A stretch of DNA of 32,818 nt from Desulfuromonadaceae bacterium (GTDB lineage: Bacteria > Desulfobacterota > Desulfuromonadia > Desulfuromonadales > BM103), in NCBI GenBank assembly GCA_041310635.1, contig JBFYXI010000019.1, positions 1-32,818 on the forward strand, read 5' to 3'. Positions within the stretch are counted from its first letter, which is position 1; every line of letters begins with the position of its first letter. The notes beneath the pieces were generated by a model, which was not told the DNA's origin, did not search any database, and saw nothing but the letters and a program-made list of their open reading frames with translations. The translations under genes and the position numbers were made by a program. Shown here in pieces: positions 5,886 to 18,393 of the stretch.

Positions 5886-5951
5886 CTAGTGTCTGGTTGA
5901 TTGAGACCTGACTGCAGGTTAATGTCCCAGCAACCAGCAACCAGCAACCAG
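5886..5951. repeat. Heptamer-phased element: CTAGTGT CTGGTTG, a central mini-hairpin ACCTG/CAGGT, then (CCAGCAA)3 CCAG
   Basis: The unit family matches that at 15068-15256 and 16582-16658. The CTGGTTG and CAACCAG arms are complementary. Confidence 0.7.
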
Positions 5952-12006: not shown

Positions 12007-13914
<1,908 letters not shown>

Positions 13915-13930
13915 GGCGGTTACTAGTGTC

Positions 13931-15066
13931 TAGTTGCAAAATTAAACGATATAATATGGACTTCTTTCACCCTCTTCGCGAAAGGAGTCGCTTATGCCGA
14001 GAAAAGCTCCCCCACCGCCGTGCAGCGAGAAGGACCGCCAGACACTCAGGGAATGGGCAAGCAGTCGAAGCATGGAGGTACGCCTTGTTGAACGTGCCCG
14101 GAGCATCTGCAAACTCCTTGACGGAGACTCCGTCAGTAAAGTCGCCAAGGACCTTAATGTGCGCCAGAACACGGTGATTGAATGGCGTGACCGGTTCGCA
14201 GATCAAGGCATTGCCGGACTGTACGATCGTCCGCGTTCGGGTAAGCCCCCGAAATATGATCAGGAGTTCCACTCGCAAGTTCTGAAAACCCTGGAACTTC
14301 CGCCACCACCTGGTCAGGCATGCTGGGACGGGCCGGCGCTTGCCAAACATCTTGGGGCTTCAGATGATGCTGTCTGGCGTGTGCTGCGCAAACACAATAT
14401 CGGTCTTTCCCGACAACGAAGTTGGTGTGTCAGCACCGATCCCGAGTTTGCACCGAAGGCAGCCGATATTATCGGACTCTATTTGGCGCCACCCGAGAAA
14501 GCCTTAGTCATTTCGGTTGACGAGAAGACAAGTATCCAAGCGTTGGAGCGCACCAAGGGTTATGTTTGTACCAGTAGCGGCAAAATCGTCCAAGGCCTCA
14601 AGAGCACCTACAAGCGGCATGGAACCCTCAACCTGTTTGCGGCGCTGAACGTGGCAACGGGCGCCATCCATGCGCAGACAACCAAGCTCAAGAGACGGGT
14701 TGATTTTCTGGCCTTCATGGATCAGGTCCTCTCAGAACTTCCGGATAGCGATCAGAGAGAAATTCACGTGATCCTGGACAATTACTGCATTCACAAGCGC
14801 AACGATGAATGGCTTGCGCGGCATCCGAACATTACGTTCCACTTTACGCCAACTTCTGCAAGCTGGCTAAATCAAGTGGAGATATGGTTTGGCATTCTCT
14901 CCCGTAAGGCCTTGAATAATGTAAGCTTTCAGAGTGTTGACCAACTGCGTGCGGCCGTTGAGGCATTTATCGACGCCTATCAACCCAACGCCAAGCCCTT
15001 TGTATGGCGCAAGCGCGAGGTCAAGGGCTCGCAATTAAGAAACACTATCGAAAACTTTAGCAATTA
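13931..15066 (+). mobile_element. IS630-family insertion sequence with TA target-site duplication
   Basis: The imperfect terminal inverted repeats are GTTGCAAAATTAAACGATA (from 13933) and the reverse complement of TATCGAAAACTTTAGCAAT (ending 15064). TA flanks the element at 13931-13932 and 15065-15066. The segment is visibly more AT-rich than its surroundings. Confidence 0.75.
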
Positions 15067-15067
15067 G
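13994..15067 (+). CDS. IS630-family transposase (HTH plus DDE_3)
   Basis: 357 aa and intact. It has an N-terminal winged-HTH region and a DDE region (VISVDEKTSIQALER ... ILDNYCIHK ... FTPTSASWLNQVEIWF). Confidence 0.9.
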   Translation: MPRKAPPPPCSEKDRQTLREWASSRSMEVRLVERARSICKLLDGDSVSKVAKDLNVRQNTVIEWRDRFADQGIAGLYDRPRSGKPPKYDQEFHSQVLKTLELPPPPGQACWDGPALAKHLGASDDAVWRVLRKHNIGLSRQRSWCVSTDPEFAPKAADIIGLYLAPPEKALVISVDEKTSIQALERTKGYVCTSSGKIVQGLKSTYKRHGTLNLFAALNVATGAIHAQTTKLKRRVDFLAFMDQVLSELPDSDQREIHVILDNYCIHKRNDEWLARHPNITFHFTPTSASWLNQVEIWFGILSRKALNNVSFQSVDQLRAAVEAFIDAYQPNAKPFVWRKREVKGSQLRNTIENFSN

Positions 15068-15111
15068 ACGCTGGTTGCTGGTTGCGGTTGCTGGCAAAAC
15101 CAAGAACAACG

Positions 15112-15148
15112 GGAAAAGGGGTTCCTTAGCTTGAGGAACCCCTTTTCC
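15112..15148. terminator. Perfect 14-bp palindromic stem-loop (candidate bidirectional terminator)
   Basis: GGAAAAGGGGTTCC (15112-15125) pairs with GGAACCCCTTTTCC (15135-15148) around a 9-nt loop. The A4/T4 runs lie inside the stem and there is no separate U-tract. Confidence 0.45.
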
Positions 15149-15165
15149 TGTGACAACGTCTTCAG

Positions 15166-15256
15166 CAACCAGCAACCAGCAACCAGCAACCAGCAACCAG
15201 CAACCAGCAACCAGCAACCAGCAACCAGCAACCAGCAACCAGCAACCAGCAACCAG
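15166..15256. repeat. Perfect tandem heptanucleotide repeat (CAACCAG)13
   Basis: Thirteen uninterrupted copies were counted (91 nt). The tract ends 3 nt from the thiC stop codon. Confidence 0.95.
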
Positions 15257-15259
15257 GTT

Positions 15260-16573
15260 TCAGCCCCCAGCCCCCGCTCTGGTCTTCTCCTGCCCCCGCT
15301 CGTTCATGACCTTATAAGCGCAGAACGCTCCGCACATGGTGCAGGCGCCGTGCTCCGCGTCGACCCCCGACTCGGCGCGCAGGCGGCGGGCCTTGGCCGG
15401 GTCGAGGGCCAGGGCGAACTGGCCTTCCCAGTCGAGCTGCTTGCGGCAGCGGGCCATGGCGTTGTCTTTCTCGATGGCCCCCGGCACCCCCTTGACAATG
15501 TCGGCGGCGTGGGCGGCGATGCGGCTGGCGATCACCCCCTCGTGAACATCCTCGACGGTCGGTAGGCGCAGGTGCTCGCTGGGGGTGACGTAGCAGAGGA
15601 AGTCGGCTCCGGCCGCGGCCGCGAGGGCTCCGCCGATGGCGCAGGTGATGTGGTCGTAGCCGGGGGCGATGTCGGTCACCAGCGGGCCGAGCACGTAGAA
15701 CGGCGCGCCGTGGCAAAGGCGCTTCTGCAACTGGATGTTGGTCCGGATCTGGTTGAGCGGCACATGACCAGGACCCTCGATCATCACCTGCACCCCGGCC
15801 GCCCAGGCCCGCTCGGTCAATTCGCCGAGCACGATCAGTTCATGAATCTGCGCCCGGTCGGTGGCGTCGGCCAGGCACCCCGGGCGGAAGCCGTCGCCCA
15901 GGGACAGGACCGCGTCGTACGGCTTGACGATCTCCAGGAGGCGGTCGTACTGCTCGTAGAGGGGGTTTTCCTTCTGGTTGTGGGTCATCCACTCGATGGT
16001 GAAGGAGCCGCCGCGGGAGACCACCTCCATGATCCGCCCCTCGCGCTCCATCCGCTCCACGGTGGCGCGGGTCACCCCGCAGTGGACGGTGATGAAATCG
16101 ACGCCGTCATCGAGGTGCTTGACGATCCCTGCGAAGATCTCGTCGGCAGTCATGTCAACCATGGCCTTCTGCTTGCGCATGACCGTATCGACCGCCGCCT
16201 GGTAGAGTGGCACGCTGCCGATGCAGGCTTTGGTTTCGGCAATCACCGCCCGGCGGATCTCATCGATCGGCCCGCCGGTGGAAAGATCCATGATCGCGTC
16301 CGCCCCGGCGGCCACCGCCACGCGGGCCTTCTCCAGCTCCTTGTCGATGCTGGTATCGTCGCGGCTGGTGCCGATGTTGGCATTGACCTTGGTGCGCAAT
16401 CCCAGGCCGACGGCCAGCGGCGTGCCGTGTGTGTGCTTGCGGTTGCGGCAGATGACCGCAGTGCCCTCGGCGATGCGCTGGCGCAAGGTTTCGGCAGCAA
16501 CCCCCTCAAGCGCGGCAGCCTGCTCCATCAGTTCGGTGACGATACCCTGGCGGGCAGCTTCGATTGTGGTCAT
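15260..16573 (-). CDS. thiC: Phosphomethylpyrimidine synthase ThiC (radical SAM)
   Basis: 437 aa. The sequence is ThiC-like throughout and ends in the cluster motif CTMCGAFCAYK. Confidence 0.95.
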   Translation of the reverse strand: MTTIEAARQGIVTELMEQAAALEGVAAETLRQRIAEGTAVICRNRKHTHGTPLAVGLGLRTKVNANIGTSRDDTSIDKELEKARVAVAAGADAIMDLSTGGPIDEIRRAVIAETKACIGSVPLYQAAVDTVMRKQKAMVDMTADEIFAGIVKHLDDGVDFITVHCGVTRATVERMEREGRIMEVVSRGGSFTIEWMTHNQKENPLYEQYDRLLEIVKPYDAVLSLGDGFRPGCLADATDRAQIHELIVLGELTERAWAAGVQVMIEGPGHVPLNQIRTNIQLQKRLCHGAPFYVLGPLVTDIAPGYDHITCAIGGALAAAAGADFLCYVTPSEHLRLPTVEDVHEGVIASRIAAHAADIVKGVPGAIEKDNAMARCRKQLDWEGQFALALDPAKARRLRAESGVDAEHGACTMCGAFCAYKVMNERGQEKTRAGAGG

Positions 16574-16581
16574 GGTTTCCT

Positions 16582-16654
16582 CTTGGTTTCTGGTTTCTAG
16601 TGGCTGGTTTCTGGTTCTTGGTTCTTGGTTTCTGGTTTTGCCAGCAACCAGTAA

Positions 16655-16658
<4 letters not shown>
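16582..16658. repeat. Heptamer-phased element inside the thiamine operon
   Basis: CTTGGTT TCTGGTT TCTAGTG GCTGGTT TCTGGTT CTTGGTT CTTGGTT TCTGGTTTTGCCAG CAACCAG TAACTAG. It fills the whole thiED-thiC spacer. The terminal CTAG contains the thiED stop codon. Confidence 0.85.
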
Positions 16659-18085
<1,427 letters not shown>

Positions 18086-18096
18086 CTTTTCTCCCC

Positions 18097-18140
18097 GCAA
18101 AAAACAAAGAATCGCCGGGCTGGTTCGGCCACGGCGATTC
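18097..18140 (-). terminator. Intrinsic terminator forming the expression platform of the TPP riboswitch
   Basis: On the minus strand GAATCGCCG pairs with CGGCGATTC, extended by GGC/GCC pairs. TTTGTTTTTT follows, immediately before the thiDE RBS. Confidence 0.7.
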
Positions 18141-18167
18141 CCGAAGGTTTCGATCGTTGCTGACCAG

Positions 18168-18262
18168 ACCGCTTCCCTACGCCGGCATGACCCGGATCAG
18201 GTTCGAGGGGTCGTCCCGCCCGCGCGGAACTCTCAGTAGGAAAGGCCTACTCCCCCAGCGGT
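18168..18262 (-). promoter_or_regulatory. TPP (THI-box) riboswitch aptamer
   Basis: The minus strand reads ACCGCUGGGGGAG...CUGAGAG...ACCCCUCGAACCUGAUCCGGGUCAUGCCGGCGUAGGGAAGCGGU. This matches the conserved CUGAGA and ACCUGAUCUGG..CCAGCGUAGGGAA cores, with P1 pairing ACCGC/GCGGU. Confidence 0.9.
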
Positions 18263-18393
18263 AATGGCTTGTTGCGGCTGATCGGCCCGTCTTTATCGGC
18301 AACGCGCCCACAGCATTCAAACAGCTTATAAAGGTTGCCGCCACCCTGTCAACCTTTGCGTGCCATCGGAGGCGGTCCGGTCCCAGCAGGCTC

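Follow-up and report, generated by a model that had tools for sequence, protein, structure and literature searches.

A perfect heptamer array behind thiC, likely the expanded arm of a paired-repeat intergenic element in a Desulfuromonadales genome

We analyzed a 32,818-nucleotide (nt) stretch of a Desulfuromonadales metagenome-assembled genome (MAG) (assembly GCA_041310635.1, contig JBFYXI010000019.1, positions 1 to 32,818; hereafter, the window), in which the genes speA and thiC converge on a spacer filled by a repeat element. One part of this element is a perfect tandem array of the heptamer CAACCAG, the subject of this report; facing it across a terminator-like hairpin is a shorter, degenerate arm of complementary units that is interrupted by an insertion sequence (IS). 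The features from speA to thiC are as follows:

12007-13914, plus strand: speA (arginine decarboxylase; Pfam Orn_Arg_deC_N, Arg_decarb_HB and Arg_decarbox_C), convergent with thiC
13915-13932, plus strand: distal part of the opposite arm, GGCGGTTACTAGTGTC plus TA (from the empty-site join)
13933-15064, plus strand: IS630-family insertion sequence (Pfam DDE_3, 3e-22, plus HTH_32/29/23; transposase open reading frame (ORF) at 13994-15067)
15067-15094, plus strand: proximal part of the degenerate opposite arm, GAC GCTGGTT GCTGGTT GCGGTT GCTGG (Tandem Repeats Finder (TRF) and inverted-repeat match)
15090-15102, plus strand: apex-like motif GCTGGCAAAACCA at the inner end of the short arm
15112-15148, both strands: terminator-like GC hairpin between the arms, stem GGGGTTCC/GGAACCCC, 15 pairs (terminator scan)
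15163-15256, plus strand: perfect (CAACCAG)13.4 array (TRF: period 7, 100% matches, score 188)
15257-15277, plus strand: three degenerate units, GTTTCAG CCCCCAG CCCCCGC, in the same 7-nt phase as the array
15260-16573, minus strand: thiC (Pfam ThiC_Rad_SAM, 2e-197)

The array, whose unit can equally be read as CAGCAAC, runs for 94 nt and 13.4 copies with zero substitutions, and its plus strand consists of 43% A, 43% C, 15% G and 0% T. Since thiC lies on the minus strand at 15260-16573, its stop codon is 3 nt away from the array. The 7-nt phase continues past 15256 into thiC, so the thiC stop (15260-15262) sits within a degenerate unit; these units also overlap the last thiC codons and contain a TRF row of their own (15261-15275, CAGCCCC x2.1). 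The nearest ThiC loci are all in Desulfuromonadales or Geobacteraceae records. A chance origin of the array is excluded because perfect period-7 arrays outnumber those of neighboring periods genome-wide (24 arrays of at least three copies, compared to 2, 14, 1, and 1 for periods 5, 6, 8, and 9, respectively).

The opposite arm is recognized by TRF at 15070-15094 (GCTGGTT, period 7, 3.7 copies, 89% matches, one indel), and a 16-nt stretch of it is the perfect complement of the array. A CTAG is the classical target of IS630 elements. Here the target is a CTAG within the arm, with the TA duplicated at 13931-32 and 15065-66. The element is present as a single copy in the genome, and its terminal inverted repeats, GTTGCAAAATTAAACG and ATTGCTAAAGTTTTCG, match at 10 of the first 16 positions. 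We reconstructed the empty site by removing 13933-15064 together with one TA copy and joining 13915-13932 to 15067-15094. The restored arm reads CGGTTAC TAGTGTC TAGACGC TGGTTGC TGGTTGC GGTTGC TGG, or about six phased units, and starts directly after the speA stop. No IS lies between speA and thiC in the congeners shown, where the two genes are likewise convergent. The sequence CTAGTGTCT of the distal arm recurs in another arm at 5886-5894 and on contig C73. An earlier note on this DNA, made from sequence alone, had described a perfect (CAACCAG)13 tract at 15163-15256, 3 nt from the thiC stop, opposite a degenerate complementary arm of about 3.5 units. The tract, its position and the degeneracy of the arm are all borne out, whereas the arm proved to be longer than described once the IS is removed.

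Between the arms, the hairpin at 15112-15148 is preceded by an A-tract and followed by a T-tract on both strands. A blastn search with the 68 nt of 15095-15162 found no other copy of the hairpin region in the whole genome. Searches of RNA families over the element gave nothing credible at E <= 1, and only the thiamine pyrophosphate (TPP) riboswitch of the thiamine operon passes the gathering threshold.

The unit is not confined to this spacer. Across the genome (a 2.07-Mb MAG of 296 contigs, 64% G+C and 81% complete), CAACCAG accounts for 8 of the 24 perfect period-7 arrays and occurs with at least two perfect copies at 12 sites. Among the six perfect arrays with five or more copies, five consist of this unit, and these include all three of at least 12 copies. 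These three long arrays are all perfect, with 12.7, 13.4, and 14.1 copies (89, 94, and 99 nt), and each has a decayed partner arm. The two outside the window lie at 2988-3076 on contig C204 and at 3715-3813 on contig C205. Paired sites always follow the order 5'-degenerate CTGGTTG arm, loop, CAACCAG arm-3', and never the reverse, and the loops at the other CAACCAG copies are unrelated. Sister arrays occupy the housekeeping spacers glyQ-glyS, queA-tgt (which holds the 12.7-copy array) and efp-epmA, and one lies downstream of folD. The copy number of period-7 arrays is bimodal, peaking at 3-4 units, with an empty interval from 8.6 to 12.7 before the three long CAACCAG arrays.

On contig C165 (2827-2925), a 14-nt compound array of alternating GGTTGCT and GGGAGCT runs off the contig end. 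The assembly therefore probably lacks one or more longer arrays of a related unit.

A related element lies on the other side of thiC, in the spacer between it and the upstream gene of the same operon, which runs in the order TPP riboswitch, thiE/thiD fusion, thiC:

16582-16658, minus strand: sister element in the thiED-thiC spacer, TTACTGGTTGCTGG - CAAAA - (CCAGAAA/CCAAGAA), about eight units
16655-18100, same operon as thiC: ThiE/ThiD fusion gene (Pfam)
18157-18266: TPP riboswitch (81.7 bits)

TRF places 7.9 copies of the sister repeat at 16584-16638, and the element ends 10 nt before the thiC ATG. The exact 13-mer GCTGGCAAAACCA is common to 15090-15102 and to the sister element (16633-16645, minus strand). 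Because these are its only two genomic copies, related elements flank thiC on both sides. We also considered CTGGCAAAACCA as a conserved, order-wide apex motif. It is present at low copy in 88 of 151 genomes, but a reversed control is also common, and we dropped it as not clearly beyond chance. The sequence GGCAAAACC adjoins only four arrays in this genome.

The CAACCAG arrays belong to a much larger class. TRF detected 196 period-7 arrays in the genome, 110 of which (56%) are intergenic, although intergenic DNA makes up only 12.5% of the total. After merging, 65 of 107 intergenic arrays (61%) have an inverted partner, defined as a match to two reverse-complement units no more than 200 nt away; with the reversed sequence as control, 1 of 107 arrays has such a partner, and with the complement, 17 do. 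By spacer type, the counts are 76 co-directional, 12 convergent and 4 divergent, compared to about 51, 18, and 23 expected from spacer length, and the arrays are thus depleted in divergent (promoter) spacers. At 44 loci, G/T-rich sequence forms the 5' arm and C/A-rich sequence the 3' arm on either strand, as opposed to 11 with the reverse polarity. In the seven families with at least two informative loci and any G/T-first locus, this order holds at every locus. The mean sense-strand G+T content is 0.55 for arrays by stop codons and 0.39 for those by start codons, which are C/A-rich. This class-wide polarity is not explained by a plain hairpin requirement. Several unrelated unit families coexist in the genome, and many of their units share the pattern NNNCTRG.

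Comparison with relatives indicates that the units turn over rapidly. A search for (CAACCAG)3 had no match in six congeners and matched only 2 of 150 other genomes of the order. One of these two, from another family of the order (G122), has the same arm order and also an GCTGGCAAAACCAAG apex. The G122 locus (contig C1, around 164189-164364) is composite and comprises roughly 30 heptamers (CACGAGC, CAACGAG and CAACCAG). It is preceded by CTAGTTGCTAGTTGCTGG-CAAAA-CCAAG, and a start codon follows shortly after its end.

The synteny of speA and thiC is kept in relatives, and the orthologous spacers have the layout of stop, arm, terminator hairpin, complementary arm, stop. Their units are CGATGAG/CTCATCG, CGTGGGA/TCCCACG, CAGAATC/GATTCTG, GGGACGC and others. 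In a set of 80 thiC loci from the order, period-7 arrays concentrate immediately before and after thiC, nearly all of them built from other units, and the queA-tgt spacers of the six congeners contain unrelated repeats. Thus, variation in array length and sequence between relatives is present at the species level. Because the unit was not found in congeners and other units occupy the orthologous spacers, the sequences indicate that the CAACCAG family is young and species-specific, and that arrays are replaced in place.

We conclude that the array behind thiC is one expanded member of a genome-wide, fast-changing family of paired heptamers, which belongs to an already described class of unexplained function. 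Cyanobacterial short tandemly repeated repetitive (STRR) heptanucleotides were reportedly first seen in Calothrix, by Mazel and colleagues in 1990. In the strict sense these have cyanobacterial hosts, whereas the host here is a Desulfuromonadales bacterium.

The closest description is that of heptameric long simple sequence repeats (SSRs) in Xanthomonas (GGGAATC) and Nostoc (GGGGA(C/T)T), which form 70-75 convergent pairs per genome, prefer four units, include perfect arrays of 14 and 26 units, and are in their majority transcribed (Rehm et al., 2015; PMC4692102). They vary extensively in length and sequence between two close species, Xcc and Xac, have no tie to phase-variable gene classes, and are of unknown function (PMC4692102). 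The arrays described here are likewise dispersed tandem 7-nt units with frequent convergent inverted pairs, enriched between aligned ORFs and depleted between divergent ones, with a modal copy number near four and rare perfect arrays of at least 14 units. In both cases, length and unit change between close relatives, and there is no link to surface or virulence genes. Both also follow the rule that the G-rich strand is coding just after a stop or non-coding just before a start; behind thiC, CTGGTTG lies on the coding strand, 3 nt past the stop. On the other hand, CTGGTTG has GG runs only and cannot be counted among G3-type G-quadruplex formers, several unrelated unit families share one genome here, and an IS630 sits in this element whereas no IS association was seen by Rehm et al.

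A second precedent comes from the same order. Geobacter metallireducens has paired, opposite-strand tandem sites of 7-9 nt with IS elements alongside, in three classes of predicted global regulator binding sites with the consensus sequences GTTGCTYN (class 1), TCTCCGTS(Y) (class 2) and MTYCTGA (class 3), for which binding by a regulator resembling integration host factor (IHF) or HU is the authors' proposal only (Aklujkar et al., 2009; PMC2700814). In G. bemidjiensis, direct repeats of 6-42 nt and palindromes occur in 12% of spacers (Aklujkar et al., 2010; PMC2996986). The Geobacter sites resemble those found here in several respects: their tandem units of 7-9 nt form pairs on opposite strands with variable spacing, they lie in spacers of housekeeping operons, their families are lineage-specific, and IS elements are inserted beside them. 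The hexamer GTTGCT, which forms the core of class 1, is found in the unit here as well (GTTGCTG). However, the Geobacter arms have 3-5 units, unlike the 13 perfect units of this arm, and class 1 has four units of an octamer rather than a heptamer.

Two further systems are less similar. The direct TAACTGA heptamers of Beggiatoaceae, cyanobacteria and Bacteroidetes, for which a post-transcriptional role has been proposed (MacGregor, 2015; PMC4679880), are also intergenic and tandem, often lie a few nt upstream of start codons and reach tens of copies. However, a single unit recurs there across phyla and almost only in direct orientation, whereas the units here are lineage-specific and mostly in inverted pairs. 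Repetitive extragenic palindromes (REP) and the bacterial interspersed mosaic elements (BIME) of enterobacteria are conserved palindromes of about 35 nt spread by REP-associated tyrosine transposases (RAYT). Like the elements described here, for which transcription is presumed, they are transcribed, hairpin-forming and dispersed, occupy co-directional or convergent spacers, lie beside terminators and never in promoters, and a comparable effect on the stability of mRNA 3' ends is plausible. Unlike REP/BIME, the arms here consist of tandem heptamers whose sequence changes and which lengthen in whole units, and we found no association with a RAYT.

Taken together, these observations suggest that an intergenic hairpin element with heptamer arms, of the long-SSR/STRR-like class, brackets the bidirectional intrinsic terminator of the convergent genes speA and thiC, and that the array is its expanded arm. 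This is the reading that we favor, with reasonable though far from complete confidence. The arm would have grown by replication slippage in 7-nt steps, and recently so, because 94 nt carry no substitution while the facing arm has decayed and been split by IS630. Transcription would place (CUGGUUG)13 after the thiC stop and ahead of the terminator, and this RNA could fold back on itself by C-G and G-U pairing, forming a long hairpin immediately before the terminator stem. If active at all, such a structured 3' untranslated region (UTR) might act as a barrier to 3'-to-5' exonucleases or modify termination, akin to REP/BIME. The array is not a thiC-specific switch, because a change in copy number alters no reading frame or promoter.

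Predicted folds are consistent with this reading. Minus-strand RNA of 15060-15262 (thiC sense) folds at -110.3 kcal/mol (z = -9.4) and the thiC 3' UTR through to the terminator at -70.4 kcal/mol (z = -6.1). In the latter fold, (CUGGUUG)13 is self-paired (C-G and G-U) and lies right next to the terminator stem, on its upstream side, whereas the centroid structure of the plus-strand RNA, (CAACCAG)13, is unpaired. The earlier note had placed the tract in a 3' UTR or convergent spacer and had ascribed any function to RNA or DNA structure, which these folds make plausible. Its proposal of recent slipped-strand expansion gains indirect support from the lack of a match to the unit in the six congeners searched, the predominance of CAACCAG among the longer perfect arrays, the decayed partner arms and the other units in the congeners' thiC and tgt spacers. 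Its statement that long heptamer arrays are unusual outside contingency loci, however, does not hold, as period 7 is the commonest intergenic repeat in the lineage and perfect 14- and 26-unit arrays have been published for Xanthomonas and Nostoc. As a whole, that earlier interpretation is partly supported.

Several points weigh against the favored reading. We infer slippage, polymorphism and transcription alike for this array. Within the genome, the arms do not co-vary (one is perfect and its partner decayed, as on C113 and C205), which suggests that selection for full-length pairing is weak and that the element is perhaps neutral in function. Should thiC transcripts end at the intrinsic terminator, the distal arm would lie outside the mRNA and the long two-arm hairpin may never form as RNA. 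The four other arrays of CAACCAG or the closely related CCAGAAA with at least six copies and a gene downstream are C/A-rich on the sense strand, right before a start codon, and thus a role at the 3' end cannot be the general one. Finally, the gene calls behind the class statistics come from a crude ORF heuristic (coding fraction 0.875), and some loci were mis-called, including the IS.

Among the alternatives, the one that survives best is that the arms are protein-binding arrays, i.e., phased heptamers with a CTGG/CTAG core every 7 nt that serve as sites for a DNA-bending protein or for a multimeric RNA-binding protein in which each subunit reads a single unit, along the lines of the IHF-HU idea of Aklujkar et al. 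This would account for the strict 7-nt phase across differing units, many of which contain NNNCTRG, and for the fixed order and polarity of the arms, which a plain hairpin does not demand. The resemblance of the G. metallireducens class 1 consensus GTTGCTYN to GTTGCTG, with IS elements adjoining both, points in the same direction (PMC2700814). However, units are swapped wholesale between congeners at one and the same locus and differ between families within the genome, so one conserved protein could not read all of them. In addition, no candidate protein was found, and no experiment in the cited papers supports binding. We therefore regard this explanation as unlikely.

It could also be argued that the copy number and perfection of the array, which come from one short-read assembly, are products of de Bruijn assembly and that the true array is longer, shorter or heterogeneous. 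The MAG is split into 296 contigs, the three long arrays are suspiciously alike in length and could mark an assembler limit, and contig C165 ends within a related 14-mer array. The similar lengths may reflect biology or a limit of short-read assembly. However, the lengths of the three arrays are not identical, their positions are internal to contigs and their flanks are unique, and among 592 contig ends tandem repetition is seen at one only, that of C165. Furthermore, an independent assembly, a Logan contig of run SRR28346269, is identical base for base over the IS, the short arm, the hairpin and the first four array units, and ends within the array after these four units, at its k = 31 limit. 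Thus, the presence of the array is beyond doubt and only its exact length is open to artefact, an explanation that we consider improbable.

Searches for further assemblies of the locus returned little. An exact ThiC search gave no record, both array flanks had no match in metagenome contigs, and an exact search with the IS transposase matched only one Logan contig. The left end of the Logan contig is CTAGTGTCTAG, at window position 13923, 10 nt beyond the inferred IS end; the assembly graph may branch at this point, owing to repeated arm sequence or to an IS-free allele in the sample.

A more speculative possibility concerns the C-rich strand. The plus-strand RNA of the array matches the description of a Rho utilization (rut) site (about 70-80 nt, unstructured, C-rich and G-poor), as it is 94 nt long with 43% C, 15% G and no U, and a rho gene is present in the genome. 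Read-through from speA or the IS could expose an unstructured C-rich tract resembling a Rho loading site. Given the fixed polarity (G/U-rich arm first, C/A-rich arm second) and the avoidance of promoter spacers, the paired elements might act as bidirectional transcription insulators, in which read-through past the central terminator in either direction would expose a C-rich, G-poor Rho-loading tract. The 13-unit expansion could then be a recent shield of thiC against antisense read-through from speA and the new IS630. We consider this model improbable.

Alternatively, the element could be a mobile unit of the miniature inverted-repeat transposable element (MITE) or REP type, spread by IS630 or a RAYT and with the heptamer arms as terminal inverted repeats. 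Inverted arms are dispersed in the genome, IS630 lies in one of them, and there is a single Y1_Tnp (IS200/RAYT-like) gene (contig C116, 1070-2011, minus strand, 313 aa, 42 bits). However, the inner 68 nt are unique to this locus and the loops of other copies are unrelated, which led us to reject the MITE reading. Likewise, no period-7 arrays occur on C116 or in the flanks of its lone Y1_Tnp gene, and we rejected the link to RAYT and REP. IS630 itself occurs once in the genome and splits the arm instead of having arms at its ends, and the other units at the same position in orthologous spacers fit in-place turnover better. Mobility therefore seems very improbable.

The weakest alternative is a contingency (phase-variation) locus, in which array copy number would switch or tune thiC or a neighbor, as would suit a long perfect SSR that is expected to be hypermutable and as happens in non-typeable Haemophilus influenzae, where 7-bp repeats tune the hmw promoters. 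We can scarcely credit it, as the array follows the stop of the last gene of a riboswitch-controlled operon and precedes a terminator between convergent genes, with no ORF or promoter involved, its sister arrays are found in the housekeeping spacers named above, and Rehm et al. are equally negative for the class (PMC4692102).

A single array carries little weight alone, as no gene is changed and this class of repeats has been reported since 1990. It is, however, a clean case for the old question of why several phyla fill transcribed spacers with paired 7-nt repeats. A species-specific unit has apparently been caught in mid-expansion, and the spacers of congeners keep the layout and swap the unit. 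Given reads or a cultured relative, slippage rate, polarity and RNA-level effect are directly measurable.

Some minor observations concern other sequences. No gene matching PF05635 (23S rRNA intervening sequence protein) was detected in this 81%-complete genome. The sequence GCTGGTTG, one mismatch away from E. coli Chi, was considered as Chi-like; the contigs carry no replication-strand information. The commonest heptamer family in the genome is GTGAGGA/TCCTCAC, with 32 arrays. Repeats of the Shine-Dalgarno-like GAGGAG occur on its G-rich strand, and CTCCT, similar to the anti-Shine-Dalgarno sequence, occurs on its C-rich strand.

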